Below are positions 9,689 to 55,400 of a stretch of DNA of 64,000 nucleotides, piece after piece. The stretch is from a bacterium. Lineage in GTDB: Bacteria; Electryoneota; Electryoneia; Electryoneales; Electryoneaceae. A program made the position numbers and the translations under genes. Where the stretch lies: NCBI GenBank assembly GCA_963669175.1, contig OY769902.1, forward strand, positions 992,001 to 1,056,000. Reading direction: 5' to 3'. The notes beneath the pieces were generated by a model. That model was given only the letters and a program-made list of their open reading frames with translations. It was not told where the DNA came from and did not search any database. Every line of letters begins with the position of its first letter. Position 1 is the stretch's first letter.

Positions 9689-12600
9689 ATGTCCACTTTG
9701 TTCCGGTTTTCTGTCTTGGTGATAATGATGCTGCTCTGTGCTTCATTCGCGATCGCTCAACCTGATACTGTCTGGACTGCAACGTATGGTACAGAGGGGA
9801 ATGAAGAAGGATGGAATGTTTTGGAAAAAGATGATGGTGACCTCATCGTAGTAGGAGGTCGCGAATCTAAAATTTATCAGCTATCCAGCACAGGAAACCT
9901 GGAATGGACTATGGAGGATGCCACCGTTTCCTATTATAGGGGTATCTGTGAAAGTCTTGAGGGAGATGGTTTCGTTGTATGCGGTTTCGACTACTCGGGA
10001 ATCTCTTCAATTTGTAAAGTACGAAAGTACCTGTGGGATCAAACCCTGGATTGGGCTGACCAGTATCAACCTTCATCGTGGATGAATAGTACAAAACAGG
10101 TAATGCCGGCAATAAACGGAGGTTATATCGTAAATGGTCACGATTCGAACGCAGCAGCTTATGGTAATGATTGTTTGACCAAGTACAGCGAGACAGGGAA
10201 CCGTGAAGGATACTATCGGCACTTCACGAATGGTCGAAGCGGCAATGCTATTGCCTATTCATCCATTGCAGGCTATTTACTGGTAGGTAATAATAAAATC
10301 AGTAGTGGTGACAACTATAGCCATCAACGGCTTTGGCTGGAACGTCGAGCTGACAATGGTGATGTAATTTGGGAACAATCGCTGGTTCGCGAAACAGCAA
10401 AGAACACCTTATATGGCATTAAACAGTATACTGACAACATCTATTATGTGTGCGGACAAGCGGCGTCGGGAGGCGACGTGGAAGGTTATATCGCACGCCT
10501 TGAAGAAACCCCGGACAGTATGGTTGTCGTTTGGGAATACTATTATCCCAACACTGGTGCTGCCCGGTTTTGGGATATCGACGTTATGCCTGACGGCGGG
10601 TGTGTGGCGGCAGGGTTTCTGACCACAGTCGATAGCGACACGGATGTCGTGGTTGCACGTCTCGACCCCGCGGGCAATCTCATGTGGTCCGACACTTACG
10701 GCGGTGAGAACGACGATGAGATCCGCAAAGTCCAGGTCCTCAGCGATGATGGGATCCTTCTGGTCGGAACAACCGCCTCGTATGGCGCAGGTGGCTACGA
10801 TGCCTGGGTGATTAGACTGGAAGCAGAGAACCAAGACATAGGGTGGACGGAACATACAATCGATGGCTCTTTTGATGGCGCCTACGATGTTTTCGCTGCT
10901 GACGTTGATGGAGATGGTGATCCTGATGTACTTGGTGCGGCCTATAATGAGGATATTACATGGTGGGAGAATAGCGATGGCCTAGGTACGACATGGGTTG
11001 AGCATGTTGTATCGAGTGGGTCGAATGGGGCTCGCGGGGTTTATGTTTCAGATGTCGATGGCGATGGTGATGAGGATATACTCGGAGCTGAAAATACTGA
11101 TAATTCAATTACATGGTGGGAGAACTCGAATAATATCGGAACTTCTTGGATAGAGCACATAGTAGATAATACTCTAAATAATCCAAGCTGCGTATTCGCA
11201 GCAGATGTTGATGGAGATGGTGATGTAGACGTGGTTGGATCTTCTCAAAACGATGACATGGTGTTATGGTGGGAAAATACTATAGGAAATGGGACAACAT
11301 GGATTAGTCATATTGTCGATGATAGTTTTGATTCTCCGTGGAGTATTTACATAATGGATATGGACAACGATGGGAATATAGATATTGTCGGTGCGGGATA
11401 TTCGGCAGATGATATTTGTTGGTGGGAAAATACTAATGGTAATGGTATGAGCTGGTTACAACATGATATTGATAATAATATAGATGGTATATGGAGTACA
11501 TGCGCTAAAGATATTGATGGAGATAGCGACCAAGATGTGTTAGGGGCAGCATTTATTGGTCATATCATTAGCTGGTGGGAAAACACTAACGATGCAGGAA
11601 CAACATGGGTTGAACATCCGGTTGATGAGGAAATGACTTATGCAACTAGTGTTTATTCTATAGACGTCGATAATGATGGTGATAATGATATTATAGGGGC
11701 TTCATGGAGTGATGAAGTAGTCTGGTGGGAGAATACTACCGGAGATGGAACTGTTTGGAATGAACATACCATAGACAGCGGTTTTAATTCTCCCAGTGGA
11801 TTGTTTGCTTCCGATATTGATGGCGATGGCGACATTGATGTTCTTGGTGCAGCCGAACATGGTGATGAAATCGCTTGGTGGGAGAACGACCTCAATCCCA
11901 ACGCCACCGCCCTCACCTGTGAAATTCCTTCCGAGCAATGGACGTTGATCGGCATTCCGGCAGAAGTAACCAACGGTTCCTTTGCTGCTCTGTTTGCGGA
12001 TGACCTGCCCGGTACACCTGGTCGAGATTTCCGGATCAGTTACTGGAATGAAGCAAACAATACGTACATCCGTTACGGTGAAGCTGATCATCCTGTCGAT
12101 TTGGGACAAAATCCTCCATCGTTTGCACCCGGAATCGGGGTGTGGATATATCAGAACCTTGGTTATACGGCTACTCTTGACATCACTGCCGCCCAACTTG
12201 CAGGCGCTACCAACGAAGGCGCTTCATGCCTTGTACCGCTGGCCCAGGGGGATGGCGCACGCACCATGATCGCCAATCCCTTCAACTACATCTCAGATTG
12301 GCGACGCATGCGGATCTACGATTCTGCCAATGATCAACGCTTCTCCATCTTCGCCGCTGCACAAGATAGCAGAATGAATTCGTATGCCTACACGTACGAT
12401 GGCGTAAACGAGCAATGGGAGCAGGTGAACTGCTACGGCACTTCGAATGTCACCCTGGATACCTGGGAAGGCTTCTTCGTTGTTCAAACCGATGCCACAA
12501 ACAGTTACCAGCTTGAAATGATGCCAGCCAACCTGCTGTGTGGTGATCCTGAAGGCGCGGATTTTGAACTGGATGAACCCGGCGAGTTTACGTTGCCACT

Positions 12601-13327
12601 GGTCGTTCGAACTTCGGACGATATCCGCAGGGACACCCACAACGCCTTAGGTATTCATTCTTTTGCAGATGATCAGTATGATGGCTTGGACGCATTTGAG
12701 TTCACACCACGTTCCCCGGAGTTTGTCCAGCTCTATTTCGATCACAATGATTGGAACCACCTGCCGGATGTTTACACCTACGACTACCGCAGCGCCGACT
12801 TCAGCGGCGGATCGAAGACTTGGTATTTCACCGTGCGAACGTGGCAGTTGCCGGGCGAAGAGCTGGAACTGATCTGGCCGGGAGTTGAGGATGTGGATGA
12901 CGCTTATGAGCTGCTGCTATACACCCCGGACAACACCGAGATCGATCTTCGAACAGCAGATAGTTACAACTTCACCAGTGAGAACGAAGCGGACAGCCGT
13001 CAGGATTTCATGATCGTCTGCCGGTTCGCGGGGAACGATGTGGCGGAAACAGAAGCGATGCCAGTAAACTTCGGCATCCACGACCTCTATCCGAATCCGT
13101 TCAACGATCAGGTCCGCATCAGCTATGGTCTTCCGGAAGCTGGCGATGTGAAGCTGACCGTGTTCAATATCCTGGGGCAACAGGTGGCGCGACTGGCAGA
13201 GGGCAACCGTACCGCGGGATTGCATCACACCCAGTGGCATGCGAAGAACATGGCCAGCGGGGTGTACCTGGTGAAGCTGGAAGTGCAAGGGCGGAGCAGT
13301 ATCCGCAAGGTACAGTTATTACGTTAG
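9689..13327 (+). CDS. Secreted protein: N-terminal beta-propeller, 7 FG-GAP repeats, C-terminal T9SS sorting domain
   Basis: SD ggggagggg and a signal peptide; seven ~51-aa repeats with D(V/I/M)DxDGDxD loops and WWEN; C-terminal LYPNPFN..FNILGQQVA..ASGVYLVKL..KVQLLR. Confidence 0.92.
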   Translation: MSTLFRFSVLVIMMLLCASFAIAQPDTVWTATYGTEGNEEGWNVLEKDDGDLIVVGGRESKIYQLSSTGNLEWTMEDATVSYYRGICESLEGDGFVVCGFDYSGISSICKVRKYLWDQTLDWADQYQPSSWMNSTKQVMPAINGGYIVNGHDSNAAAYGNDCLTKYSETGNREGYYRHFTNGRSGNAIAYSSIAGYLLVGNNKISSGDNYSHQRLWLERRADNGDVIWEQSLVRETAKNTLYGIKQYTDNIYYVCGQAASGGDVEGYIARLEETPDSMVVVWEYYYPNTGAARFWDIDVMPDGGCVAAGFLTTVDSDTDVVVARLDPAGNLMWSDTYGGENDDEIRKVQVLSDDGILLVGTTASYGAGGYDAWVIRLEAENQDIGWTEHTIDGSFDGAYDVFAADVDGDGDPDVLGAAYNEDITWWENSDGLGTTWVEHVVSSGSNGARGVYVSDVDGDGDEDILGAENTDNSITWWENSNNIGTSWIEHIVDNTLNNPSCVFAADVDGDGDVDVVGSSQNDDMVLWWENTIGNGTTWISHIVDDSFDSPWSIYIMDMDNDGNIDIVGAGYSADDICWWENTNGNGMSWLQHDIDNNIDGIWSTCAKDIDGDSDQDVLGAAFIGHIISWWENTNDAGTTWVEHPVDEEMTYATSVYSIDVDNDGDNDIIGASWSDEVVWWENTTGDGTVWNEHTIDSGFNSPSGLFASDIDGDGDIDVLGAAEHGDEIAWWENDLNPNATALTCEIPSEQWTLIGIPAEVTNGSFAALFADDLPGTPGRDFRISYWNEANNTYIRYGEADHPVDLGQNPPSFAPGIGVWIYQNLGYTATLDITAAQLAGATNEGASCLVPLAQGDGARTMIANPFNYISDWRRMRIYDSANDQRFSIFAAAQDSRMNSYAYTYDGVNEQWEQVNCYGTSNVTLDTWEGFFVVQTDATNSYQLEMMPANLLCGDPEGADFELDEPGEFTLPLVVRTSDDIRRDTHNALGIHSFADDQYDGLDAFEFTPRSPEFVQLYFDHNDWNHLPDVYTYDYRSADFSGGSKTWYFTVRTWQLPGEELELIWPGVEDVDDAYELLLYTPDNTEIDLRTADSYNFTSENEADSRQDFMIVCRFAGNDVAETEAMPVNFGIHDLYPNPFNDQVRISYGLPEAGDVKLTVFNILGQQVARLAEGNRTAGLHHTQWHAKNMASGVYLVKLEVQGRSSIRKVQLLR

Positions 13328-13456
13328 CCTGGATATTTCACAACTGGCGCTTCAAATAATGATCCCTGATGGAAAGGCCAAGACAAGAACCTCGGTAGTG
13401 GTTTCCTTTTCAGAGGCGAAGAGGTTTCTGTGACCGAAAAGAGAAGCACAAAACGT

Positions 13457-13557
13457 AAAAAGGGTCACGACGCATTCGCCGTAACCCTTTAAAAACCGTG
13501 TGCCGGGGGATGATTGGGACTCCTCCTCACGAGGGGTGAACCTCGGCGGATTTTGAG
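13457..13557 (-). repeat. Degenerate duplicate of the tRNA-Leu 3' half plus its terminator hairpin (att-like site)
   Basis: Direct repeat of 15854-15951. cctcacgaggggtgaacctcggcggattttgag is identical, the T-arm is altered, and the hairpin aaaaagggtcacg..cgtaacccttt is conserved. Confidence 0.92.
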
Positions 13558-13751
13558 CGGCTTTTATCTGATAATTCACAACACATTACAATTCGTAACC
13601 GCTTGGTTTACTGGTCTTTATGTCGCACCCTGCTGTTGCTCCCGGAGGCACACTTTTGCCCGTTTTTGCCGCCGAGTGTGCCATGAGTGTGCCACGGGTT
13701 GAAAGCTCTTTATTCAGATATTAGATTTCATATCCACAATCGAGGTTTTGC

Positions 13752-15515
13752 ATGAGTATCGATGGATTTAAGAAGAAACTTGATGGCTATATAGATAAAA
13801 TAATTAACTCCTTAAAAACTGTAAATCCCATTGCAATAGTGAATATATTAAATATTAACACCATAAGAGCTATTAACAACGCAGAATATTACAGTATTAT
13901 GGTAGATGCATATCCTAAAAAGTTTCATTATTTGAAATCACTAGTGCTTGGTCGTGGATATAATCCTAGTATGATTGATCAAAATAATTTACCAGATGTA
14001 GACATACTAATAAAAGCTATAGATTATATATATATTAGATATTTAGAAGAATTAACAACAATTAATGAAGACAAAAAAGATGATAATAATCTTGATGATT
14101 TATTTGAAACAGAATATATACTATCATTGCTTCAAGTTGAATTAGGAGATACTGATCAATATGATACTAGAATGAATGAATTTAATCATATGATAAATGA
14201 AATTCTAATAGAAAAATATTTTATAAATTACGACGATATATATAATATATCTAATTATTTAAGAAATTACTTTAGAAATAATATGATAAAATACAGAAAA
14301 GAATTAAAAGAAAAATATGGTCCATTTATAGAAAACAGAAAGATTTATGATCAAGGAATAATAACAAATGCCGAATATAAATTAAGAGTTAAGGAATTAG
14401 GGAATGAAAGAGATGTAGTAAAATATTTAGATAAAATGCTTCTTAATATAAGCATGATAGATATAGAAATATTATATAAAAAATACGATAAAAACATAAT
14501 CAATTGCTATTTAAATTTATTTACCATCAATTTAGAAGATATGGGAGAATTATGTTACTATCCATCGGATAGTAACAAATTAGATATATTTCCATTAGTA
14601 AAAATGAATGATGATAAAATTATAATAGTAGACATACCGTATATGACCATGAGAATACATGATAATATACATTATAGATTAAGTAAAAGTGATTCTAGGA
14701 CAAGAGAAAAATATCATAAAAGAAAAGCGTTATTTACTGAAAATAAAGCAAAAGAAATATTTAGACGATACTATGAGGAAGAAGAAATATATACGAATAT
14801 TTATTATAATAATAAAAAGGGTAATCTTTGTGAAGCAGATATGTTAATAATAAGTACAAATATTATAATAATAGTGGAAAGTAAATCACATGACATGAAG
14901 GAAATGATACATGTTGGAGCAAACATAAATGCTATAAAAAATGATTTTAAAAAGGGAATAAAAAAAGCATATAAACAAGGAATAAGGTTAAAAAAAGAAA
15001 TAGAAAGCGATAGAAACATAGAAATAAAAGATAGAAAAGGTAATATAATACTAAAAAACGATGATATAAAGAATAAAAAAATAATTATAATGGTTGTTAC
15101 TTATAAATCATATAGGGCAATAGCAACAAACATAAATGAAATATTAGAGATAGAAGGGGAAGAATATCCAATAGTGGTAGGTTTAATGGAGCTAGATAAA
15201 TATAGTATTGCATTAAAAACAAGAAAAGATCTAGAAGGGTACTTGAAAGAGAGAGATAAGGTGTATGGAAAGTTAATAGCACATGATGAATTGGAATATG
15301 TGGGATATTATGCAGAGAATAAAGGGTTGGATATTCCAGAGAAAAGAGAAAAAACATTGTTAGATCCACACTGGTCAGATATGTTTGATGACGAATTTAA
15401 AGAAAAACATAATATTGGCGATAAAAGCGTGGGAAAAAAGAAGAAAGGGAGTGAAAGAAATAAACCATGTAAGTGTGGTAGTGGAAAGAAATATAAGCGG
15501 TGTTGTGGAAAGTAA
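13752..15515 (+). CDS. AT-rich protein with a NERD-like PD-(D/E)XK nuclease motif and a C-terminal SEC-C zinc-binding motif
   Basis: EADMLII..IIVESKS (ExD..ExK) and RNKPCKCGSGKKYKRCCG; base composition far more AT-rich than the flanks. Confidence 0.85.
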   Translation: MSIDGFKKKLDGYIDKIINSLKTVNPIAIVNILNINTIRAINNAEYYSIMVDAYPKKFHYLKSLVLGRGYNPSMIDQNNLPDVDILIKAIDYIYIRYLEELTTINEDKKDDNNLDDLFETEYILSLLQVELGDTDQYDTRMNEFNHMINEILIEKYFINYDDIYNISNYLRNYFRNNMIKYRKELKEKYGPFIENRKIYDQGIITNAEYKLRVKELGNERDVVKYLDKMLLNISMIDIEILYKKYDKNIINCYLNLFTINLEDMGELCYYPSDSNKLDIFPLVKMNDDKIIIVDIPYMTMRIHDNIHYRLSKSDSRTREKYHKRKALFTENKAKEIFRRYYEEEEIYTNIYYNNKKGNLCEADMLIISTNIIIIVESKSHDMKEMIHVGANINAIKNDFKKGIKKAYKQGIRLKKEIESDRNIEIKDRKGNIILKNDDIKNKKIIIMVVTYKSYRAIATNINEILEIEGEEYPIVVGLMELDKYSIALKTRKDLEGYLKERDKVYGKLIAHDELEYVGYYAENKGLDIPEKREKTLLDPHWSDMFDDEFKEKHNIGDKSVGKKKKGSERNKPCKCGSGKKYKRCCGK

Positions 15516-15853
15516 TGTGTAAAGGTAACCTGGAGCTCGCAGTGTAGATCCAGGTTAGCGGAGCGGGCCTTGACAGTAACTCCTGCAATATATTGCCACA
15601 ACAGGCAAAAAGAAAACGGGTTATCTGTTCAACCCGTATTTCTTTTTAGCCCTTACAAACCAACATCGTTTGCCGTTCAAGCTAGACGTCAACAGCATCC
15701 CAACCAGGTAACCGAACAGATCGACCCGGTTCCCTAGGACTGCTGTCACGCTTTTTCTCCTCCAGCAAGTATTCCAGGATATCCAGGATAACCAGGGAGG
15801 CACTTGTTTTACCATTGTCGGGTGATGAGTGTACTTGGCATCATCAGGCAAAG

Positions 15854-15887
15854 AAAAAGGGTCACGGCGTGTTTGCCGTAACCCTTT
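15854..15887 (-). terminator. Intrinsic terminator downstream of tRNA-Leu
   Basis: Minus strand reads aaagggttacggcaaacacgccgtgacccttttt. Confidence 0.7.
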
Positions 15888-15897
15888 AAGAAACAAG

Positions 15898-15983
15898 TGC
15901 CGGGGGAGGGACTCGAACCCTCACGAGGGGTGAACCTCGGCGGATTTTGAGTCCGCTGCGTCTGCCAATTCCGCCACCCCGGC
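15898..15983 (-). tRNA. tRNA-Leu (anticodon CAA), long variable arm, CCA not encoded
   Basis: Minus strand gccggggtggcggaattggcagacgcagcggact-CAA-aatccgccgaggttcacccctcgtgagggttcgagtccctcccccggca folds into a cloverleaf. Confidence 0.97.
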
Positions 15984-16313
15984 GTATACATAAAACTGTG
16001 TAAAAAGAACTTCTTCTACAGCATCTCCCCTGTGTGATGCCGTAGACTGTCCAACCTGTGATGATATCCCAAGATACAACGACAGCACCCCTGCCGGACA
16101 GGAAAGCACAATATAGTGTCCGAAAGTGGTGCGCTCAAGCGTTTTTACGTCAGGCTCGGGAGGACACGAAAAAAGTCTTATCAAGAAAGGCTTTCAAGGA
16201 AACTTCTGCAATTCTTGTGTCCTGTTCCTTGTTGCCTGTGTGATACTGCCTTAGTTTACAACATCGTTATGAATTCCCCGATAAAGGACATCTTTGGAAG
16301 GAGAGCAGTGGTG

Positions 16314-19300
16314 ATGAGGTCCGGCAACCACAGTCTACAGGTCTCTTTTGTCTGCGTGGTGGTGTGTCTTGGAGTATTCTTGTCCAAAGTGCAAGCCGTC
16401 GAGTTTCCAATACTGTTTCATGAAACTGCCAATCCGCTAAGCCCTACAGGTTTTGCTGCAGGCGATCTGACGGGTGACAATTTTCCCGACCTTTTCTGTT
16501 ACGAGATCGATCATGCTACCGAATATTTCTGGATAGACGGGGCTTACGGTTGTTACACCGAAGCACACGAAATAGATATTGACCGGGAATGTGTATCCAC
16601 TGCGGTAATCGGTGATGTTACCGGGGACGGGAATGCCGATATCATACTCGCGTATGCACCCTATGACGACGAAACGCCAGAGTATACACTTCTTTACATT
16701 CTCGGTACCCCCACCGGACCTTCCAGTGACGAGGCCATCATTGAAGACGATGATTACGGGCTGCGATGGATCGAGTTGGCGGATATGGATAACGATGGTG
16801 ACCTGGACATTGTCGGACTATCCTCTGCCTTCGGCGCCCTATACGTGTGGTTAAATGATGGAACCGGACAGTTCAGTCCGCAAGCCGGCATCGACATCGT
16901 AGGAATCCAACATGCAACATTGGGTGATATGGATAATGATGGCGACCTGGATATCGTTGCTGTTGTCACCAATGATGCGATAGGGGTTTTTTACCAGGAA
17001 ACCCTTACCCAGTATACGTTTCAGGAAGTAGAGGCAGGTTTTGATGATGGTGAATGTCTGAATCTGAAGGATCTCGATGGGGATGGTGACCTGGAAATCA
17101 TCGCCTGTGGAGTGACCGATGGCGATACCAAATGGTGGGACAACACGGAGGAAGGATTTGTTGGCCATTTCCTGATCGCGACACATGGCTTATATGCAGG
17201 CGCTGAAGATATGGATGGGGATGGCGACCCGGATATTGTCCTGGTTACTGAAGAAGCGTGGCGTATCTGGATCAATGATGGTTTTGGTCAGTTCACCATG
17301 TTTTCCAACAGGACAGGGGAATTCTCACAACAGGTAGCCTTGATAGACCTGGCCGGTGATGGCTGTGCCGACATGTTTACCATAAGGAGCCATGAACTGT
17401 GCATCTATGAAAACGATGGTATGGCCATGGTGAATACGAGCACGGTAAGCACATTGATGTCCTGGGATGTGTCCCTGGTGGACTGGGACAACGACAATGA
17501 TCTGGACCCGTTAGTATACCCGTTAAACCGGAATCATCAGGCGCTGGTGGTTTATAGAAATGACGGCGACATGGACTTTACGTTTTATGGTTTTCCGGGC
17601 GCTCAGAATTATACAATGTTTGCAAACCCGGCAGATCTCGATCAGGATGGCGATCTCGATATTCTGACCGCTGACAATTCAGCGCAAAGCCAGCTATCGT
17701 GGTGGGAGCACACCATCAATATCACAGGAGTTTTCCACCTTATCCCTGGATTCGCGAATTTAACAAACATACAATGTATTGACTATAACGACGATGAAGC
17801 GCCGGACTTCTTCTGTGTCTGGGATAGTCGATATGTTCGGTTTTACATCAACGACGGGACGGCTGGTTTTTATACCTGGGAGGAAGGTAGTGTATCCGGG
17901 GTCATCGAGATGGCCTGTTGTGCTGATCTGGATAATGATGGTGATATCGATGTTGTCGCCTGTGGGCAGACCAATCCCGAAGAAACAACGTGTACCTGGA
18001 TTCTCGAGAATACCGGCGACGGAAACTTCACCAACCACCTGTTGCCCGGATATTATGGAACCCCACTCACGGGCGATTTTGATGAAGACAACGATAACGA
18101 CATCTTCATCCTGGGATTACCGAGTATCCTGCTGGAAAATGAAGGTAACCTGAGCTTTACTTCACATGTAATTGGGACACCCTCCGGGTACAAAGGCAAG
18201 GTAGTGGACTATGACAGTGATGGTGACCTGGATGTAGTTTGCACCGCTGGCTACGGTTATGATAGAGATGATATGGAGAATGTTGTTTTCTGGGAGAATG
18301 AAGGGAATCTGTCTTTTCGTCGACACATCCTGGTAGAAGCCTCGCATGCGTATAACCTGGATGTCGGAGATCTGGACGGGGATATGGATGTGGACATTCT
18401 CCTGTCCATGGGACGAGGCCTGAATGCTTCACAAGTCCTCTGTGTTGAACAACTCTCCGAAGCAGTTTTCAGCTATGAGTTTTCACTTTCTTTACCCTAT
18501 CACAACGAAATTATTACCAATGATACGGTAACTGTGAGCTGGTATTTTGATCAGATTCCTCTCCCCGCAACACCACAGGTGTTCGAAGTATTTTGGGATA
18601 CCACACGCGAGTTGACCAACGGCTGGTCTGCCACCTGCCTGGAACACAGTTTCGAGATCACCGGGTTCGGTGATTTACTGGCAGCACGAGGATTGGATGA
18701 ATTGCCAGATAATACGGTGATTTATTGGGATGTACGCACCATGATAAATGGTCAATGGATTTGGGGACGTGGACTGCCACGGCGTTTTGCGGTACATGTT
18801 CCTGATCCCCCTGAACCATTTCACCTGTTTTCGCCAGACGGAGATACCACCTTAGACGATAGGATGGCTTTCACCTGGTATTCTACCAGTGATCCGGATG
18901 CAGATGATGAAATAAGATACAGTTTGTGTCTCAGTAGTTTTTCGGATCTTGCTGAAGCCTGGTTCCCCAGAACCGGCCAGAGAGATACTGCAGTTGTCTG
19001 GAACGGTTTCGAGGACGATCAATGCTATTACTGGACTGTAACGGCAACCGATCTGACTGACAATGTTACCTGGGCGCTGGATACATTGGTATTTTTCACA
19101 GCCTTTCCTGATCCGCCCAATTCTTTCCAAAGGTTTGCCCCCTGGAATGATGATACTGTTACTGAGGATACGGTGACTGTCAGGTGGACGGTTGAAGGCG
19201 ATCCTGATCCGGGTGATTCAGTGCATTACATGGTACACTGGTCGCTGGATGCAAACATGGGAACCTGCGACAGCATGGAGACCGGGGAAAACTGGCTGTC

Positions 19301-20417: not shown

Positions 20418-20420
20418 TAC

Positions 20421-20467
20421 GAGGTTAAGAGGGTAAAAAAGGTTAAAAAGGTAAAGAAGGTAAGGAA
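20421..20467. repeat. Degenerate 9-bp tandem array (aaggt(t/a)aa(a/g))
   Basis: gaggttaag agggtaaaa aaggttaaa aaggtaaag aaggtaagg directly after the stop codon. Confidence 0.7.
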
Positions 20468-20573
20468 GACGCGTGGCCCGACTGCTTGCTGTCGGGAAGC
20501 GTTCCTGTCGTTTCCGTATCATCCAGGTAGCCCGGCCATGCCTGGCCGGGGGATATGCTGAAAGAAAAGAGGG

Positions 20574-21052: not shown

Positions 21053-21070
21053 CTTCTTGATATGATTAAA

Positions 21071-21107
21071 AATAAACCCCGCCGGACAAGCCGGACGGGG
21101 CCAATAG
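21071..21107. repeat. REP-like palindrome downstream of glyQS, with an inverted copy at 22835-22900
   Basis: aataaaccccgccggacaagccggacggggccaatag; its reverse complement recurs at 22835-22900, split by an insert. Confidence 0.85.
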
Positions 21108-21148
21108 ACAAATCGGGCGGGACCAAATAATGTCGTAAAAATCTGTTG

Positions 21149-22567: not shown

Positions 22568-22587
22568 CTTTTTATCCTCTTCTTAGG

Positions 22588-22815: not shown

Positions 22816-22950
22816 GCATAATAGTAGTGACGCACTATTGGCCCCGTCCGGCTTGAAACACGCCGTAGCTTGCGAAGGCGGTTGTCCGGCGGGGTTTATT
22901 CTAATTCCGATCGAAAGAATCAGTCCGCTTATTCCCTCGAGATCCCCGTT

Positions 22951-46915: not shown

Positions 46916-47232
46916 CATGGCCGGCAGGATTTTCAGCAGATAGTGTTACGGTGCTGTAGTGGAGAATCTGGTTTTCATATTGTTGGGAACTATTGCCTCT
47001 TGAGAAACGTATATAACGGGAGTCAGTTTCCATACAGCATCCGTTTTGATAGAGGGCCGATTGAACCTCTCTACACTTGACTCGCTGAAAAAGGCGAGCC
47101 TATTTTGTGCTAGTAACGGAGAAAATACCCACTAAGGAGTACATTACCGGAAGTTTCGCGCAACGGGTTGACCATGGCAGTTCGATCAGACAGCATAGTC
47201 GGGATACCCTATTCGCGGGCGAACGGTTAGGG

Positions 47233-47266
47233 AGGCCGTGCCGACCCAGACGCATCGGTCTTTTTT
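47233..47266 (+). terminator. Terminator-like hairpin ~20 nt upstream of porU
   Basis: aggccgtgc-cgacccagac-gcatcggtct followed by a T run. Confidence 0.5.
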
Positions 47267-47284
47267 ATTGTGGGCGATTTTCAT

Positions 47285-50200
47285 ATGATGAAAAGACACT
47301 TCGCAATTCTGTTCCTGGTAATGACCAGCCTTGTGCTGTTGGCCGGGCCTTTGTCTGCAAAGGTCACGGTGCTCGAAGATACTCCCTCCTACCTGGAACT
47401 GCAGGTTATCCCTGAAGGCTGGATGATTATCGAGGCGGAAGATGGCATTATTCCCATGCCGTTTGGCGCCGGTCTCGATGAACGTGCTGGCGGCCAAGCC
47501 ACACCATATTACCGCCGTCTGATAGGTCTTCCTTCCGGCAAGCTTCCCCAGGCGCAACTTACCCAGGTAACATGGGGTGAGTTGGTTGACGGCGTTCTGC
47601 CTGTGGGTCAGGAAGTTGAGGGTAATGACCGTGTTCCCCATCTGAGCCCGGATCGCATGATTCAGTTCGGGGCGCCCTATATGTGGCGCAACCAGTGGGT
47701 AACGGATATTTATATTGTTCCGGTTTCCCGGCAGGGGAAACAGCTTCGCAAGCTGGAAAGCGCCACCATCCGGATTGCCTATCCGGAAGCCCAGGCAGGA
47801 CTCGTTCGTAAAACAGACCCCATGTCCAGTCAATTCCTGGTAAACCCGGTTGCTGCACAGAACTGGCAGCATAGAAAATCCGGCCGAAGCGCATTCAGTT
47901 TTGAAGATCTCTGGCCTTCCGGGGAGATGTTCAAGATCGAAATCAGCCAGGAAGGGATTTATTCGCTTACACGTGCCGACCTGGAATCGGCCGGAATAGA
48001 CCTGAGCGGTTTTGATCCGAGGACTTTCCGCATTTTCGGCAACGGTGGCTTCATGTTGCCGGAAGATGTCTCGGCTGATAGAGATGAAGAGCTGATAGAA
48101 AATGCCATTCTGGTTGTTGGTGAAGATGACGGTTCCTGGGATGAAGGTGATGAGATCCTTTTCTTCGCTCGTGGTGTGAATAGCTGGGAACCATCAACGA
48201 GTTTGCCGGGCACGTATAAACATGTTCAGAACCTGTACACCAGAAACAACGTCTATTGGTTGAATGTTCCGGATGATGGTTCCATGGGGAAGCGGATGGA
48301 CCCCCTTGGGGAAGGCCTGACCCGGACCTTTGTCGCAGAATGGGCGACATCACGGGTTTATATGGACAATGACGCTTTTGTTTTCTATAGCGATAAAACT
48401 CCCGAGTCCGGCAAAAGCTGGTATGCTGCAGATCTGTACGCTGGGGGGCAGTATAACAGCTCTTTCCAACTGGATTCGCCGATTGTGGACCAGGAAGCAC
48501 AGATCAAGGTAGGCTACAAGAAGGTCTATGTAACAGGCGAATCGGATTACGATGCGGTTATCCTGGTCAATGGGGTGGCTGTCGATACAGTCGATACGTC
48601 TGTCAGCAACCGCACTTTGACCGTGCCTGCGAACGTACTTCGCAACGGTAGCAATTCCTTTACATTCAGAATGTTATCCGGGCGGGCGCTGTTTGACTAT
48701 TTCGAATTGGCCTATATCCGCAGCCTGGAAACAAGCCAGACCAAGCTGGAATTTGATGCCTTGCAGGACGATGGTGTTGCTGAAATTGACATCGAGGGCT
48801 TGACCAATCCCTGGATCTTCAATATTGAAGATTTTGACAATGTAAGTGTTACACGAACATTGCCATTCAAGATCGAAACCAGTTATGCGAACCCGCACCG
48901 GGTGCTGGCGATATCCGACGGCTCCTTCCTGAGCCCATCCAGTATTCAGTCTTTCTACCGTGGCTGGGGTGAATATCCTGATGGACTCAGACAAGACGGA
49001 ATAAGCGCTGATGCGATTTTTATCGTGCATCCCGATTTTGCTGAAGCAGCAGCGGAACTGGAGTCGTACGTGGAAGAGCGCGATGATATCCAGGCCGTCC
49101 GTGTGCGGACAACAGACATTTACAATGAATTCAGTTGGGGGTTGTTCGATCCAACCGCTATCCGAGATTTCCTGGAATTTGCCAAAGATAATTGGTCGGG
49201 AACCGGTTCGTCCGGTCCGACAGTCTGTCTCCTGATAGGCGATGGTGATTACGATTACCGTAACGTCGTATCCTCGAACGATAAAAACTGGGTTCCACCC
49301 TATGAAACCGGGATTCAGTGCCGTGACGACTGGTTCGCCACATTTACCCTGGATGGGGATGCCGAGTACATCATGGGACGTCTGCCTTTCCAGAAAGTAT
49401 CCGAGGTAGAGAATTACACCGAACGGCTCATCACCTACGAAAATGATGTCAATCGCGGTCCCTGGCGCAGCAAGGTGATCATGGTTGCCGACGATGAGTA
49501 CATTGACGTCGGACCAACCACAACCGACAAGCAGCACATGGCCTACTCGGAAGAGTTGGCCAACACTCATATCCCCGATTACATGCAAATCGAGAAAATC
49601 TATATCGGTCCTTACCCCACGGAATTTGATCCGACCACCGGCGCACGCACCAAACCGGGCGCTTCGCAGGATCTCATTGAGACAATTAATCGCGGAGCCT
49701 TGTTGATCAATTACATGGGCCATGGAAACGCGCATGTATGGGCTCACGAGAACCTGCTGCTCGACAGCCGTGATGTGTCCAATATCAACAGTGGTTTGCG
49801 CGAGCCGATCTACGTCGCGGCAACCTGCTCGTGGGGATACTTTGACCGTCCTGACAATGAAGCCTGCTTCGAACAGTTATTGGCCAAATCTGGTGGCGCT
49901 ATCGGTGTCATGGCCGCTTCCAGGAACACGTCCGGTTATGGCAACAACAACATGGTCAAGATGTTTTATCAGCTTTTCTTTGACCGTGAAGAACCGCGTT
50001 CTCTCGGCGAATGCCTGTACCTGGCAAAGATAGAAACATCCGGCGCTACCAATAAGTATTATCACTGTTTTGCCGACCCCTTGATGATGCCGGCAGTGCC
50101 ACGACTGGATTTGACTGTAGAAGAGATTCTGCCGGACAGCCTGATATCGATGCAGGTGGCCGATATCAACGGTTGTGTTCATGCGCTGAACGGTACAGTC

Positions 50201-51157
50201 CCGGTGACTGATTTCGAAGGGGAAGCGCTGGTTACCGTATATGATAGTTACGATACCTTCACCTATACCTATTTTGACGATTCAGAATTAGACTACCGCA
50301 TGCCCGGCGGCATCATGTTCCGTGGCAATGTTGGGGTTTATGAAGGTGATTTTAATGCACGTTTTGTGGTTCCCAAAGATGTGAATTACGGATCGACGGA
50401 TGGCTGGGTGGTTCTGTACGGCACCGGCAACGAAAAGGATGCGATTGGTTCGAAAGAGGGAATACACATTTCCTCGACATTCCCTGAGCCGAGTGATATT
50501 ACGGACCATACACCGCCGGAAATTGCCATCTTTTTCAATCATCGTGGCTGGCAGGAAGGTGACCTGACCGATATTCAGCCGACATTGCTGATCGACCTGG
50601 TTGACAGCAGCGGGATCAACCTGACCGGTGAAATCGGGCATGATATCAAGGTTACGGTTGATCCGGGAACATCCTCAGAACAGGCAATCGTGTTGAACGA
50701 AGACTTTATCTATGAACGTGACAGTTACACCGCGGGCACAGCCGAGCGCTTGATCACGGGGCTTGAGCCGGGACCGCATGAACTGGAAGTGCGGGCTTGG
50801 GATAATGCCAACAACATGGCCCTGGAGAGGATACAGTTTGTTACGGCTGATTCGGATGGTGATCTGATCCTTCGCAATGTGTTTAATGTACCCAATCCAT
50901 TCAAGGATCAGACTCATTTTACCTTTGAAACAATACGGGCCGATGAAGTGACGATTCGAGTCTATACGCCAAGCGGTCGCCATATAAAGACCATTGGTCC
51001 TGTAAGTGTTCGGGATAACTTCAATTATATCGAATGGGATGGCCGTGACCATTACGGCGATGATATTGCTAATGGTGTGTATCTCTATACGGTCAAAGTC
51101 AGCAATTCATCCGGCCAAAGTGAAGAGGCTGTTGGTAAACTGCTGAGGATTCGTTAA
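47285..51157 (+). CDS. porU: T9SS sortase PorU (peptidase C25, clan CD) with C-terminal FlgD-like domain
   Basis: IYNEFSWG..DPTAIRDF, LLIGDGDYDYRN, GRLP; catalytic YMGHG (49718) and ATC (49826); AWDNANN; NVPNPF; directly upstream of porV. Confidence 0.92.
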   Translation: MMKRHFAILFLVMTSLVLLAGPLSAKVTVLEDTPSYLELQVIPEGWMIIEAEDGIIPMPFGAGLDERAGGQATPYYRRLIGLPSGKLPQAQLTQVTWGELVDGVLPVGQEVEGNDRVPHLSPDRMIQFGAPYMWRNQWVTDIYIVPVSRQGKQLRKLESATIRIAYPEAQAGLVRKTDPMSSQFLVNPVAAQNWQHRKSGRSAFSFEDLWPSGEMFKIEISQEGIYSLTRADLESAGIDLSGFDPRTFRIFGNGGFMLPEDVSADRDEELIENAILVVGEDDGSWDEGDEILFFARGVNSWEPSTSLPGTYKHVQNLYTRNNVYWLNVPDDGSMGKRMDPLGEGLTRTFVAEWATSRVYMDNDAFVFYSDKTPESGKSWYAADLYAGGQYNSSFQLDSPIVDQEAQIKVGYKKVYVTGESDYDAVILVNGVAVDTVDTSVSNRTLTVPANVLRNGSNSFTFRMLSGRALFDYFELAYIRSLETSQTKLEFDALQDDGVAEIDIEGLTNPWIFNIEDFDNVSVTRTLPFKIETSYANPHRVLAISDGSFLSPSSIQSFYRGWGEYPDGLRQDGISADAIFIVHPDFAEAAAELESYVEERDDIQAVRVRTTDIYNEFSWGLFDPTAIRDFLEFAKDNWSGTGSSGPTVCLLIGDGDYDYRNVVSSNDKNWVPPYETGIQCRDDWFATFTLDGDAEYIMGRLPFQKVSEVENYTERLITYENDVNRGPWRSKVIMVADDEYIDVGPTTTDKQHMAYSEELANTHIPDYMQIEKIYIGPYPTEFDPTTGARTKPGASQDLIETINRGALLINYMGHGNAHVWAHENLLLDSRDVSNINSGLREPIYVAATCSWGYFDRPDNEACFEQLLAKSGGAIGVMAASRNTSGYGNNNMVKMFYQLFFDREEPRSLGECLYLAKIETSGATNKYYHCFADPLMMPAVPRLDLTVEEILPDSLISMQVADINGCVHALNGTVPVTDFEGEALVTVYDSYDTFTYTYFDDSELDYRMPGGIMFRGNVGVYEGDFNARFVVPKDVNYGSTDGWVVLYGTGNEKDAIGSKEGIHISSTFPEPSDITDHTPPEIAIFFNHRGWQEGDLTDIQPTLLIDLVDSSGINLTGEIGHDIKVTVDPGTSSEQAIVLNEDFIYERDSYTAGTAERLITGLEPGPHELEVRAWDNANNMALERIQFVTADSDGDLILRNVFNVPNPFKDQTHFTFETIRADEVTIRVYTPSGRHIKTIGPVSVRDNFNYIEWDGRDHYGDDIANGVYLYTVKVSNSSGQSEEAVGKLLRIR

Positions 51158-51380
51158 CTTGTAAGATTAGCGCTTTTCTGAATATTGTCCGGGAATAGCC
51201 GATATAGTCAGAAAAGCAGTATTTATTTTGAGTCTTTGGGATAGAGGTTAGTAGATTGACGTCGGTCAACTCGGACGGCATGTTTGGCTGATAACTTGAG
51301 TTCCAGATAGTTGTTGGAATATAGCTTCGAGGGTGTACGTACGGAGCGGCGCAAACAGAGTGGCAAGCAGGGATAAAAAG

Positions 51381-52454
51381 ATGATGCATTTGAGTGGTGA
51401 CCAGCGGATCGGCATCCGCATGATGACTTGGATAATTGCGGCTGGTATACTGGTCTTGCCGGTGGCAGTGGAAGCGGCCTCGGTGTCTCAGGCGGGTGTA
51501 TTGTTCCTGAAGATTAATCCAGGCGCTCGACCGGGTGGTATGGGTGAAGCTTTCACAGCGATTGCGGATGATGCAACTGCGACGTACTGGAATCCTGCAG
51601 GTCTCGCTTGGCAGGATCAAAACGAGTTGACCCTGATGCACGTGAACTGGTTGCCTCAGTTCAAGCTGTCCGACTTGTATTACGACTACATCAGCTATGT
51701 TCATCCGGTAGAAGAATGGGGCACCTTCGGTGGGAACATTGTGTTCCTGAACCTGGGTGAAACAGAACGCCGTGACGAAAACAACCAGTACCAGGGTACG
51801 TTCTCGTCTTATGAATTCGCCGCGACCGGCAGTTATGGTGCGACGATGACGGAAAACATGGCCCTTGGTGTCAACTGCCGTTTCATTTACAGTCACCTGT
51901 CAGACCGAGGCGCCGGAAACGAACTGGGTTCGGGTGTTGCGACATCTATCGGTGTTGACCTTGGCTGGTTGTGGCATACGCCGCTGGAAAAACTGGATGT
52001 GGGCGCCAATTTGTCCAACATGGGTCCGAAAGTGGCCTATATCGACCGCGCCCAGGCTGACCCGCTTCCGACAAACCTGTCGTTGGGTGTTGCCTATCAT
52101 ATCGTTGATTCACCTTACAACAAAGTGACGTTGGTAGGTGACCTGAACAAGGAATTGGTCCGCCGTTATGATGATGGCGATTCAGATCCTTTCTATATCG
52201 CCATGTTCTCGGCCTGGTCGGATGGTCCTTTCTGGACGACCATGATTTACAATGTGGGCGCTGAGTACTGGTATACCGACCTGATCGCTTTGCGCGTCGG
52301 GTACTGGAACGATGAACTCGGGAAAGTAAAACCCCTAACCTTTGGAGCCAGCCTGCAATATTCGCTCTACCGTTTTGACTTCTCGTACGTCTCGGCCGGT
52401 GAAGGTCATCCGCTGACGGATACCATGCGGTTCAGTCTGTCAATCGGATTCTAA
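51381..52454 (+). CDS. porV: T9SS outer-membrane shuttle PorV family beta-barrel (start uncertain, 51333-51420)
   Basis: FLKINPGARPGGMGEAFTAIADDATATYWNPAGL; PLPTNL; C-terminal HPLTDTMRFSLSIGF. Confidence 0.9.
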   Translation: MMHLSGDQRIGIRMMTWIIAAGILVLPVAVEAASVSQAGVLFLKINPGARPGGMGEAFTAIADDATATYWNPAGLAWQDQNELTLMHVNWLPQFKLSDLYYDYISYVHPVEEWGTFGGNIVFLNLGETERRDENNQYQGTFSSYEFAATGSYGATMTENMALGVNCRFIYSHLSDRGAGNELGSGVATSIGVDLGWLWHTPLEKLDVGANLSNMGPKVAYIDRAQADPLPTNLSLGVAYHIVDSPYNKVTLVGDLNKELVRRYDDGDSDPFYIAMFSAWSDGPFWTTMIYNVGAEYWYTDLIALRVGYWNDELGKVKPLTFGASLQYSLYRFDFSYVSAGEGHPLTDTMRFSLSIGF

Positions 52455-52481
52455 GAGACAAATTGCTGAGGCTAGCAGGCC

Positions 52482-55400
52482 GTGAAATCGATTAAAAAAC
52501 ATTTGCAGGGCATCTTGCTGGTGACCCTGGGGGTTGCCTTGTACCTGTCCGGAACAGTTCAGGCAGCGCAACCAGGCGCACCATTACGCTTTACTCCCAC
52601 GTCAACCCTGGGAGAACAAAGCCGTCATCTCGCAGGAAGCGAACTGGATGATATCCGTCATCCCGGATTGCCGAACACGTTACGTGTGCTGGCCATTCGA
52701 GTGGATTTTCAGTCTGACACGCTGTCAACGACGACTGGCGACGGTTCCTTCTTCTACGAGCTGCCGGATACGGTGGATGCCGAAGACTGGCTGATCGATC
52801 CACCACCGCACGACAAAGCGTATTTTGAAGATCAGTTCCTCGGACTGAAGAATTATTACGAACGCTTCAGCCATGGGGAATTGACCATTGTCGGTGATAT
52901 CTATCCCGCGGCAAATCAAGCGGCCTACCGGATGCCGTATCCTATCTGGCACATCAACTACGGTGACACTACCGAAGCCGGATTTGAACGTCTGAACCAG
53001 ACATTGACTCAACTCTTCATCGATTCCTGGCAGGCCGCAGACAGCGATCTGGTAGCTGCGGGAGTCGATTACAGTCAGTACGACTATTTTGTGATATTCC
53101 ATGCCGGTGCAGGCAACGAGTTTGACACGGGCTACGATACCACGCCGCATGATATCCCTTCAGTCTACATCGGCCCCCAGGACTTGCTGGAATACTCAGA
53201 CTATCCCAATGGGGTAGAGCTTGGTAACAGCTTCATACTGGACCGTGGTGTTATCCTGCCCGAAATGCAGCGTCAGGGCGATGTAGAAGTCGGTCTCCTT
53301 GGCACAATTTGCGCACAGGTCGGTTTCCTGATGGGAATGCCGCACCTGTACCAGGCTGAAACAGGTGACCCTGGCATCGGGCTGTTCGGGCTGATGGATC
53401 GAGGTTTTGGTGGCTTTTTCGGCATTATTCCCTCCCCGCCCAGCGCGTGGATGCGCTATTATATGGGCTGGGAAGACGCGGTTGAAATTACAGATGGACC
53501 GATCCGGCTTGGCGTTCTCCAACTTCCGGATTCCGTATTCCACGACAGCTTGCATCGACTGGTAAAAGTTCCACTTAACGACAACGAATACTATCTGCTT
53601 GAAGCGCGCCGACGTGATCCGCAGGAAGAAGGCCAGGTGTGGTATGACAGCACCTACGCGCTCGATGCTCCGGATGCGAATGGAAACCAGGACACGCTGG
53701 TTCTTCGCTACGATTACAGCTTTGATCTGCTGCATGAAGGAACGGATTTTGGAGTGCCTGTCTGGATTGAGGACCAGGACTTTGACCTTCCCGCCAGTGG
53801 TATCCTGATCTGGCATATTGATGAGCGCCTGATTCGTGCCGGGCTGGCAGATGATCGTATACAGACCAGCAAAGAACAGCGCGGGGTTAAACTGATCGAA
53901 GCGGATGGCAGTTGGGATATCGGTGAAGAGTACGCTTTCCTGACGGCAGGTGACGGTAGCGAATACGGCGTCATTGATGATGCTTTCTTTGCGGACAACG
54001 AAATCTGGCCTGAAGCAAACCCGGGCATGGGACACGATATTTTCTTTGGCAGTGAAACCGCCCCGGCAACAGTAACAAGCGATGGGCTACAAACTCATAT
54101 TCTTTTCGACAACTTCTCCAACATCGCCGATACCATGCGTTGCCGTGTAGGTAACGAGTGGAAGCAGGGCGATTTCCCGACATTTTTACCGTTCCCATAT
54201 CCAAACAATTATCCTGTGCGAGCTGTGCCATGCGATGTGGATGGTGATGGTATAAACGAGATCTTCTTCGGATACGGTGAAGGTGAAGCGTATGTATTTG
54301 ACGGAGAAGGCACTCAACTATATCATGCCCAGCTTTCAGATCCGGAATTTGTGCATGCCTGGCCGGTAGCGGACTTGAATGGTGATGGCAGGGATGAAGT
54401 TGTAGCGGTTGGGATAGACTATGTGACAATCCTGACCTTCGAAAGCGATGGAACAGTCAGCCTGTCAGGGCGAGCACTTGCTAATATGCCTGACAGTCCG
54501 GCAACAGACCTGGTCCGGAATGCGATGATTGTCGGTCCCGAGTCTGATCCGCACCTTGTATTCCGCTGTATGGATGAAGGCGGTGTTCTCGGGTTGATCT
54601 CATTGTCTCTGCTGAATACCACGGCCGATCCAGCAACATTCTGGCTGACTGATATTGAAAATGCGAACTATGCTTCAACCTTTGCTGTTCAGGTTGGCAG
54701 CGCCTCTTCGGATACGGTTGCCTATGTAACTAGTGACGGCACTTTGTACGTGCTGACGGCAGATCAACTGCATCTTGTATCCGATGTTGACGGCTTCGCT
54801 ACGCATGCTGAAGTAATTGGGTCAGTTGTCAGCGCTGATTTTGACGGAGATGGTGTCGCAGACATCGCGGCAACAATCGGTACACAGATGGTGTACTGGT
54901 TTGGGTCGGAACAGTACAGTTACGCCAATGTGTATGATCTTGGCGGTTTTTATCTTGGGATGATACCGCTGGATATCGACCATGATGGTCTGGTTGAATT
55001 TACAGGCTTATCACTAACAAGCAGAAAGATCGAGGGATTTGAACCCACAGGCATTCTTTCTGAAGGGGCCGGACTGCAAATCAGCAACAAGCAGAGCATA
55101 TTGAGCCGGGCCGATTTCTACTGGATGGATGGATCGTCGCGAGGTGACAACGAGCTGTTGACATCATTTTCGACGCAGGATTTGTCCAGTACCCTGTGGA
55201 AAGAAACTATTGATGCGTTCACGATGAATAACAGCAGAGAACGGCTTGGATTTCCTCTACAATCTGTGTATGGACCACAAGTATATGGCGGGACAAAACT
55301 GATCCTGACACAACTCGACCAAGATGATAATCCGGAGTTGGTTCTGTATGGTGAGGCGTCCAACCGGATTCAGGTTTTCAACCTCCCGATCTCATCCGGA

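Follow-up and report, generated by a model that had tools for sequence, protein, structure and literature searches.

Why does one short acidic motif, Glu-Leu-Asp-Glu (ELDE) or a close variant of it, recur in the secreted proteins encoded by a 64,000-nucleotide stretch of an Electryoneota genome? The stretch (G000:C1:992001-1056000, hereafter the window; part of a 5.45-Mb single-contig genome) contains several genes for type IX secretion system (T9SS) cargo, recognized by Pfam Por_Secre_tail, which encode two FG-GAP proteins (9689-13327 and 16116-20417), a 5177-residue repeat protein (31382-46915), and an M6-like protein (52482-55763). An earlier note, made from the window alone, had read the motif as an Asp-specific code for extracellular processing, and every site that it listed was found at the nucleotide given for it. 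Taken by themselves, the four window proteins are unconvincing, because the sites of the giant repeat protein and of the 16116-20417 protein belong to one homologous repeat and the other two proteins have single hits; composition alone predicts an estimated 0.2-0.8 or so motif hits per window protein. Our genome-wide analysis showed that ELDE is a short linear motif under protein-level selection, specific to T9SS cargo and to this lineage. We give a probability of about 0.5 to the reading that it is an Asp-centred processing code read by a secreted protease, most likely of family C25.

The close relatives of this bacterium in public records are metagenome-assembled genomes (MAGs) of Candidatus Electryoneota, a candidate phylum of the FCB group. 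In passages of PMC9324843 these MAGs are described as degrading proteins and as rich in S8 peptidases; its main text mentions neither T9SS nor C25 nor gingipain. Open reading frames (ORFs) were called by a simple codon-usage procedure of our own, a crude one that yielded 3463 ORFs and drops some genes with overlapping long ORFs, such as those at 4229-6466 and 59919-61145 of the window. A hidden Markov model iterated from five C-terminal domains (CTDs) of the window collected 329 proteins, which we take as the T9SS cargo, and left 3134 other ORFs. For a 5.4-Mb genome, 329 ORFs with a T9SS CTD make an unusually large secretome, and two of them reach 11593 aa (G000:C1:4826820-4861601) and 10354 aa (4378113-4409177).

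The loose form of the motif, [ED]LD[ED], occurred 235 times in the cargo, where composition predicts 47.6, as against 159 times in the other 3134 ORFs, where 129.9 are expected. For ELDE itself the figures were 158 observed and 7.8 expected in the cargo, distributed over 86 of the 329 proteins, and 61 observed and 33.4 expected in the remainder; a first-order Markov model raised the expectation for cargo only to 8.3-10.6. The enrichment that had been predicted for secreted proteins was thus borne out for those with a T9SS CTD and failed for ORFs that have a signal peptide and lack a CTD, in which ELDE was found 19 times (11.4 expected), the same ratio as in ORFs with no signal peptide (42 against 24.9). 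The signal-peptide rule used here is crude and flags 295 of the 329 cargo proteins.

The order and identity of the four residues were critical: the other 11 orderings of E, L, D, and E occurred 5-36 times in the cargo, and any single substitution in E-L-D-E lowered the observed-to-expected ratio from 20 to 6 or less. An unbiased scan covered the 4-mers that 15 or more proteins contain; in it ELDE ranked alongside k-mers from the CTD and from the FN3 repeat. The residue before the motif is N, D, G, or S, and the residue after it is enriched in L (4.4-fold), F (2.7-fold), and Y (1.9-fold), which gives the sequence-based consensus [N/D/G/S]-E-L-D-E-[L/F/Y] for T9SS cargo of this Electryoneota family. 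The fourth position is the most tolerant genome-wide, accepting E, then D, S, and W. Twenty codon combinations encode ELDE, with a usage near that of the genome; this rules out a repeated nucleotide element as its cause, and the synonymous variation indicates that selection acts on the protein. When the motif was masked, the 158 sites fell into 38 clusters whose flanks were unrelated by BLAST, 21 of them singletons, and the Poisson probability of at least 38 unrelated contexts with 8 expected was 1.7e-14. It is therefore nearly certain that the motif is real and selected. Its density at aa 30-100 was about double the overall value, the 15 residues after it were more hydrophobic than those at random cargo positions (0.41 vs 0.36, p = 4e-4), and the 15 residues before it were slightly less so (p = 0.055).

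Positional evidence came from the C25 family. The genome encodes 22 members, and 20 of these are gingipain-like paralogues of about 1250-1780 aa that consist of Propeptide_C25, Peptidase_C25, CarboxypepD_reg, and a CTD, the last missing only from one truncated ORF; in L001 and L002, PF01364 and PF08126 both scored above their cut-offs, and by these matches and the model described below the paralogues have the caspase-hemoglobinase fold together with the C25 prodomain. [ED]LD[ED] occupied the junction of the prodomain and the catalytic domain (aa 188-257) in 17 of the 20 paralogues, and E-L-D did so in 19. Nine paralogues had a second copy in a prodomain loop (aa 124-161), and 11 had a third near aa 1254-1300, after a basic Gly/Ser-rich linker.

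Paralogue L002 (G000:C1:2976444-2981492) was aligned by phmmer against PDB to RgpB (E = 2.9e-18) and to the RgpB prodomain, and HMMER placed its E128-L-D-E131 on R126-A-E-N of that prodomain (the chain index of 4ief_A plus 19 gives the RgpB residue number, hence Arg126). Passages of PMC4357240 and PMC4138498 state that RgpB has an inhibitory loop, Lys121-Tyr135, whose Arg126 is inserted into the S1 pocket, that its two autoprocessing sites are Arg126 and Arg229, and that its specificity is set by Asp163. The two ELDE copies of the paralogues therefore sit where RgpB carries residues of its own specificity (Arg126 and Arg229). An AlphaFold2 (AF2) model of L002 residues 1-620, with a predicted local distance difference test (pLDDT) score of 92.3, was matched best in PDB by RgpB, pro-RgpB, and Kgp; Foldseek gave E = 2.9e-23 for 1cvr and about 1e-13 for the prodomain chains of 4ief. 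In this model the loop ELDE lies in coil (pLDDT 85-90) and the junction ELDE in a short helix, residues 223-228 (pLDDT about 93).

Other secreted proteases carry the motif at comparable places. In five S8 cargo proteins it precedes the Pfam S8 match by 22-33 aa and the catalytic Asp block by about 26 aa, the latter being what we take to be the usual distance of the subtilisin mature N-terminus, and in three C1-like cargo proteins it marks the N-terminal edge of the C1 match. ELDE also precedes unrelated domains (GGPDxxGY..., FN3-like FLGxNVY..., MAM-like, and beta-propeller-like), often 50-90 aa from the N-terminus. The motif was thus found at maturation junctions, those of C25 and S8 proteins, and in an exposed segment, the coil loop of an FN3 repeat (pLDDT 53-68, described below). 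In the protein L044 (G000:C1:4337856-4341617), aa 80-147 matched Pfam Cleaved_Adhesin at 20.2 bits, too weak against a cut-off of 21.4 to be used; this match begins at the last residue of an ELDE. Cleaved_Adhesin is the type of domain that is cut out of gingipain polyproteins.

A search for related loci with a single protein recovered no relative, and one with an alignment (A1) recovered 56 loci. The C25 junction was readable in 59 of 67 relatives' loci, where it read ELDE in 48, ELDD in eight, and ELDQ, ELND, and ELNE in one each; among database representatives of the close clade the fourth residue was also Q, N, R, or Y, and a distant C25 clade (28-35% identity) had mostly the junction RDxEYQQPSY, or E-[T/I/L]-D forms. 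The S8 junction was ELDE in 15 of the 17 readable junctions of family f1, the others being ELDS and one without the motif, and the linker just before ELDE differed in each f1 orthologue; in family f5 all five junctions read xTDE. Two S8 genes of G009 (L057 and L080) and a locus of G006 (L056) read TDELDE, a form that combines the TDE of other families with the LDE of this one and hints that ELDE arose by a small duplication beside an older D-E. Canonical C25 junctions likewise read ELDE in f1, TD[N/D/E/P/V] in f4 and f5, and QLDE in f7, and those of the f5 paralogues that lack the catalytic His read [E/D]LD[I/V] or GLDE.

Across lineages, then, the Asp was the most conserved position (ELD-x at C25 junctions, xTDE vs ELDE at S8 junctions), preceded two residues earlier by Glu, with L replaced by T between families and the Asp kept. 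The x-E-x-D arrangement is the P4-P1 rule of caspases. The idea of an Asp-specific code is upheld to this extent; the part that did not survive is specificity for Asp alone, since the whole of E-L-D-E is needed, a far narrower requirement. Judging from these sequences, D-E is the older element and partly inherited with the domains, and the E-L before it was fixed in f1 in several unrelated proteins, as a shared reader with extended specificity would produce.

At the DNA level we counted the pattern GARCTNGAYGAR against its reversed control as a proxy for the motif in each genome. Pattern and control counts were 215/32 in G000, 166/66 in G001, 150/28 in G003, 99/16 in G009, and 84/32 in G006, and were near 1:1 in those family genomes that have 0-6 C25 matches, as in most of the genomes from other families. 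Among the 16 genomes of the family, the excess correlated with the number of C25 matches (Spearman 0.84; 0.61 once 2.5 sites per C25 match had been subtracted); the P values of these coefficients overstate the evidence because the genomes are kin.

We regard the motif as most likely a maturation signal because it lies at the junctions of three protease families, because it occupies zymogen positions equivalent to those of RgpB, and because L and T switch between families. The enrichment, the restriction to cargo, the positions, and the conservation within the lineage are matters of observation. That ELDE is a processing site has, in our estimate from sequence, even odds or slightly better, and assignment of the enzyme to C25 is tentative, appreciably less probable than that. 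A proteolytic cut at or beside the Asp (E-L-D↓E) would free secreted proteases (C25-like, S8, and possibly C1) from their prodomains, separate the modules of very large multidomain cargo, and nick exposed loops of great length, among them those between strands E and F in the type-B FN3 repeats of the 5177-aa protein. The tolerance of the fourth position is as expected of a P1' residue after a P1 Asp. The reader would be a T9SS-secreted clan CD peptidase of family C25, with two sets of candidates, the canonical enzyme L177 and the 20-member gingipain-like subfamily that lacks the catalytic His.

L177 (G000:3259808-3263752) is the single canonical His/Cys C25 protein besides the sortase PorU. 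It has a prodomain and a CTD (PF01364 at 178.7 bits over profile positions 2-374, PF08126, and PF18962), the catalytic motifs NHLGH and QGCYCG, and the junction LDELDE 6 aa upstream of the Pfam C25 match. A phmmer comparison with RgpB, made to read its S1 pocket, gave E = 0.74, and the region has a deletion in the MAFFT alignment. Orthologues (E <= 1e-40) were found in seven of the 16 family genomes, six of which had a pattern-to-control ratio of at least 2, the seventh (G010) standing at 1.2.

The earlier note had named PorU as a possible enzyme. The protein (47270-51157, forward strand, as are PorV, the giant protein, and the motif sites of the window) is an ordinary, canonical C25 member: it scored 688.2 bits against NF033707 (cut-off 420) and 2.9e-68 against Pfam C25, and its motifs MGHGN and ATCSWG supply the His-Gly and the Cys. 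PorU acts near C-termini, and none of the 158 cargo ELDE sites lies within 100 aa of a C-terminus (one within 130 aa), which indicates that the CTD cut by PorU is not involved and leaves PorU unsupported as the reader. A survey of the C25, C14, and C13 families in the genome yielded the 22 C25 proteins, two C14 (caspase-like) homologues (G000:C1:543928-545922 and 2647344-2650688), and no C13 peptidase; no C11 peptidase was found in the genome either. Neither C14 homologue has a CTD, so they are not secreted by the T9SS, and both were rejected as readers. One of the two has a signal peptide and a C-terminal half that looked, by eye only, like formylglycine-generating enzyme; the other, whose gene adjoins that of a 5237-aa cargo protein, has a long N-terminal region taken by eye for WD40-like repeats.

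The 20 paralogues fit the proposal that a C25 paralogue is the enzyme by the RgpB-like zymogen positions of their motifs and depart from it in their catalytic residues. The Cys equivalent to RgpB Cys244 is present in 18. The Y-T-G-H-G of RgpB reads Y-x-x-R-G-(Y/F/W), or a close variant, in all 20, and in a gapless register an aromatic residue faces His211 and an Arg faces Thr209. A search of 1.84 billion cluster representatives gave at least 650 hits at E <= 1e-30; from the best 150 (P0005-P0154), the 143 that are 560 aa or longer were aligned with L002. In this 144-row alignment Arg431 and Cys460 were both present in 134 sequences, and the remainder had mostly lost both. We conclude from these alignments that there is a large C25 branch with what appears to be an Arg/Cys pair in place of His/Cys; a literature search of incomplete coverage found no description of C25 homologues without the His. 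At the position of RgpB Asp163, where a basic residue had been predicted for an acid-binding S1 pocket, some 9-10 of the 20 paralogues, L002 among them, have Lys, and the others have T or another residue, so that the Asp which marks the RgpB pocket for basic residues is not kept. A complex prediction that paired the catalytic part of L002 (residues 228-620, alignment A3) with 33 residues from a giant-protein loop (window 44066-44164) scored 0.00 in two runs with no controls, and has no bearing either way.

A bolder form of the processing reading, which we hold to be rather unlikely, is that this family runs a kind of convertase system outside the cell. It would use an acidic code like that of caspases, E-L-D↓E-hydrophobic, and its enzymes would be the C25 branch with the Arg/Cys pair. 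The branch would then comprise acid-specific peptidases or transpeptidases of non-canonical mechanism; the zymogen loop and junction would co-evolve with a secretome-wide code that drifts between families (E-L-D vs x-T-D), and the whole would act as a programmable cascade that activates surface proteases and giant adhesins by the dozen.

Within the window, the motif is best represented in the giant cargo protein (31382-46915), which is composed of an N-terminal beta-helix-like region, about 40 FN3-like repeats, and a CTD. A regular expression found 39 F-strand anchors, and the repeats take two forms: type A follows the pattern ...SYxLxxLxDDTxYWWKVRA, and in type B, of which there are 16 copies, strand E is separated by an insert of 0 to about 65 residues from an (E/D)LDELPDDxTxYWRV block. 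Pfam fn3 scored below threshold on these repeats. The earlier count of the motif in 14 of 42 repeats was matched by our finding of the loose motif in 14 of the 16 type-B repeats, directly upstream of (L/I)(P/E/L)D..x.YW(R/K)V. These are GLDELDE closing a 35-aa loop insert in repeat 2 (34034-34054), ELDQ in repeat 3 (35009-35020), ELDE in repeats 4 (35690-35701), 5 (36353-36364), 9 (39239-39250), 12 (42095-42106), and 13 (43358-43369), DLDE in repeats 6 (37304-37315), 7 (37949-37960), 8 (38594-38605), 10 (40190-40201), and 11 (40835-40846), ELDELDELDE at the end of a basic, Gly/Ser-rich loop insert of about 55 aa in repeat 14 (44123-44152), and the variant SLDD at the end of an insert of about 65 aa in repeat 15 (45248-45259).

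We modelled type-B repeat 4 (window 35441-35815) with AF2 from a 17-row alignment (A2) that omits repeat 8. The model had a mean pLDDT of 87.4, nine short strands, and an FN3 fold, and almost all of the top 50 Foldseek matches were FN3 domains (best E = 8.8e-5). ELDE (model residues 84-87) lies in coil between strands 64-67 and 92-101, four residues upstream of strand F, where pLDDT rises from 53 (residues 71-80) through 68 (81-90) to 96 (91-100). That the motif ends variable, poorly ordered stretches accordingly holds as a tendency, seen in the FN3 coil and in the hydrophobic downstream flank, and does not extend to the ordered C25 junction. The two sites of the 16116-20417 protein, GLDE (18690-18701) and ELNE (19374-19385), lie in the E-F loops of two type-B repeats, in the register of the giant-protein repeats (GLDELPDNTVIYWDV for GLDE). 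Since they share this register, the FN3 repeat family takes in every window site except those at 12566 and 52641.

The first of these, ELDE within DFELDEPG (12566-12577; aa 960 of the 9689-13327 protein), separates the region after the FG-GAP repeats from the last domain before the CTD, in a recurrent context of linker, ELDE, and x-x-W/F-x-L-x-L. It is kept at the aligned position in four paralogues of the same genome, with differing flanks, and in homologues of G004 and G006. The second, ELDD within GSELDD (52641-52652; aa 54 of the M6-like, inactivated metalloprotease), lies 8 aa upstream of the start of the NF052323 match; it is the weakest site and, from its sequence, may be a chance hit. 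The gene of this protein belongs to a T9SS attachment-type cluster (47270-60096) that comprises PorU, the outer-membrane shuttle PorV (51333-52454; NF033709 at 283 bits, cut-off 90), which adjoins PorU, the M6-like 'inactivated' metalloprotease with its CTD, an SGNH/AlgX-like protein (55760-56989), and an MA-clan peptidase joined to a TolB-like propeller (57004-60096). Lying beside PorU and PorV, the M6-like protein might be a stand-in for a PorZ-like partner. Between the two FG-GAP cargo genes, gene 13752-15515 encodes NERD nuclease-related and SEC-C motif domains; G+C over 12001-16000 is low, 0.40 vs about 0.50 in the surroundings, and the stretch may be an inserted element.

A number of results weigh against a cleavage code, in which the cut, the scissile bond, and the enzyme are all inferred from sequence. 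ELDE is absent from 243 of the 329 cargo proteins and only about five of some 15 S8 cargo proteins have the motif, while in three cargo proteins ELD(D/E) directly follows the signal peptide, where there is nothing to remove. The giant-protein sites, which the earlier note had read as ends of variable linkers, are inside a domain, in its E-F loop, and not between domains. The 12566 site is not kept in G008 (two loci) and G011, which limits its conservation, and the 52641 site is not conserved past the genus, the same-genus orthologue reading ELDV and the readable sequences of other genera having no motif. The junction ELDE of the C25 paralogues is inside a conserved block, DWDxxELDEYxLYRG, that is predicted to be ordered, and this block and its helix make a structural role possible there; an ordered element, which would speak against a processing site, was thus predicted at the C25 junction (pLDDT about 93) and not in the FN3 loops, where the motif is coil. 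Finally, type-B FN3 repeats of an f4 genome read (L/M)FDELPDD, with no insert, and the occurrence of DELPDD in these and of D-E at S8 junctions in lineages without ELDE indicates that the motif is partly inherited domain sequence.

The candidate enzymes raise difficulties of their own. Where RgpB has Arg126, the aligned residue of L177 is also Arg and is not acidic, and no orthologue of L177 (E <= 1e-40) was found in G005, G008, G013, and G014, which nevertheless keep ELDE at the S8 junction. In the paralogues, the catalytic His (RgpB His211) is missing from all 20, the residue aligned to RgpB Glu152 is not conserved, and the 144-row alignment has no conserved His column, the best columns reaching 76% and 69%. 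By the textbook mechanism, proteins with such sequences should not be peptidases. Lys at the Asp163 position was also discarded as a general specificity switch, as it occurs in only about half of the paralogues.

These difficulties lend themselves to other explanations. One, which we consider unlikely, is that ELDE is a docking motif and remains uncut: the His-less C25-like proteins, as pseudo-proteases, would bind it through their Arg-bearing cleft, both on other cargo and, autoinhibited, on their own prodomains, and so build a non-covalent surface network like gingipain-adhesin complexes or cohesin-dockerin pairs. Such a network would suit the absence of the His throughout the 20 paralogues and the wider subfamily, the sheer number of paralogues with a CTD (all but the truncated ORF), the motif right after the signal peptide in three proteins, and the many copies in exposed giant-protein loops, which would give multivalent binding; the inhibitory loop of RgpB, to which the loop ELDE is aligned, is itself bound without efficient cutting, according to parts of PMC4357240 and PMC4138498. 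However, Arg431 and Cys460 are retained together in 134 of 144 sequences and mostly lost together, which suggests that the Cys does chemistry beyond binding, and the motif stands exactly at the pro/mature junctions of S8 proteins and of the canonical C25, where a cut is needed for activity. A structural role is unlikely as well. Here ELDE would be a start-of-domain element (a helix N-cap, a set of Ca2+ ligands, or a folding aid) that has no reader and is convergently favoured in the acidic secreted proteins of the lineage. The high-confidence helix at the C25 junction, the more hydrophobic downstream flank (p = 4e-4), and D-E before the S8 mature domain and in type-B FN3 repeats of lineages without the full motif are what this explanation would predict, and PMC4357240 notes, in a part of its text, that RgpB-type enzymes bind Ca2+ near prodomain contacts. 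It is at odds with the diversity of the downstream folds (FN3 strand F, S8, C25, beta-propeller-like, MAM-like, and beta-helix), with the need for the exact order E-L-D-E when the other 11 orders are at background, since a charge cluster would not need order, and with the coil of modest confidence in the FN3 model; unless there is a shared reader, it is also difficult to account for the limitation to T9SS cargo, as against other signal-peptide proteins, and for the L/T switch that separates families in proteins of unrelated kinds.

The site may also be a true processing site whose enzyme lies outside clan CD, a secreted S8 or acid-adjacent metallopeptidase, with the C25-like proteins as substrates only. 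We think this quite unlikely. The missing His would then need no explanation, pseudo-members that have lost both Arg and Cys still hold the junction ELDE, and there are many secreted proteases to choose from, in keeping with the S8-rich related MAGs described in part of PMC9324843. Yet the ELDE aligned to the RgpB inhibitory loop points to a C25 cleft, and we identified no candidate of another family. The xExD pattern is typical of clan CD, which counts further against an outside enzyme. Very improbable, in our view, is chance combined with shared ancestry, by which acidic composition and repeat amplification would account for the motif with no function. In the window alone it would have some appeal, as 16 of the 18 sites counted in the earlier note are copies of one FN3 repeat type and the M6-like site is not conserved; across the genome it has to contend with 158 occurrences against 7.8-10.6 expected, the permutation control, 38 unrelated contexts (P = 1.7e-14), and a motif kept beside freely varying linkers.

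If the processing code exists, it would be the first case known to us of one short acidic motif governing much of the processing of a bacterial T9SS secretome; in a literature search, of incomplete coverage, we found no paper linking ELDE to type IX secretion. The gingipain model of how zymogens and polyproteins mature would then reach beyond one oral pathogen to an uncultivated protein-degrading phylum, whose habitat is given in parts of PMC9324843 as anoxic waters and sediments. In very large cargo proteins it would also help to place mature N-termini and the limits of domains, and an Asp- or ELDE-specific secreted protease might be useful as a reagent. Peptides containing ELD are a candidate substrate that can be tried directly on the His-less C25 branch, which counts at least 650 clusters in the database (E <= 1e-30).

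Among known systems, the gingipains of Porphyromonas gingivalis (RgpB, RgpA, and Kgp) are comparable in being T9SS cargo with Propeptide_C25, Peptidase_C25, Ig-like domains, and a CTD, and in having recognition residues at the inhibitory-loop position and at the pro/catalytic junction. Gingipain adhesin domains are separated by cleavage, and the C25-like proteins described here have further sites between their later domains. The systems differ in that the recognition element here is an acidic tetrapeptide instead of a single Arg or Lys, that of the 21 gingipain-like enzymes 20 are without the catalytic His and carry an invariant Arg beside its position, and that the motif, with its putative cleavage, extends across 86 cargo proteins of many families.

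Caspases (C14, clan CD) are cytosolic His/Cys enzymes in which two Arg residues bind the P1 Asp. The motif resembles their sites in its Glu at P3, in Asp at P1 if the cut falls after Asp, and in a tolerant fourth residue, as for P1', and the candidate enzymes have the clan CD fold; in contrast, the system described here is extracellular, the two C14 homologues of the genome lack a CTD, and the strong preference for Glu after the Asp, followed by a hydrophobic residue, is not a caspase trait. Legumain and the asparaginyl endopeptidases (C13, clan CD) accept Asp or Asn at P1 and a hydrophobic residue at P2'; the enrichment of L, F, and Y two residues after the Asp is similar, but the genome has no C13 homologue, and a ligase activity for the ELDE system would be pure speculation. 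The proprotein convertases furin and kexin, whose multibasic sites belong to the eukaryotic secretory pathway, differ from the system proposed here, which is acidic instead of multibasic, bacterial, and tied to the T9SS, and in which the S8 enzymes carry the motif themselves. What the two have in common is the use of one short motif in unrelated secreted precursors, where it marks prodomain junctions and module boundaries.

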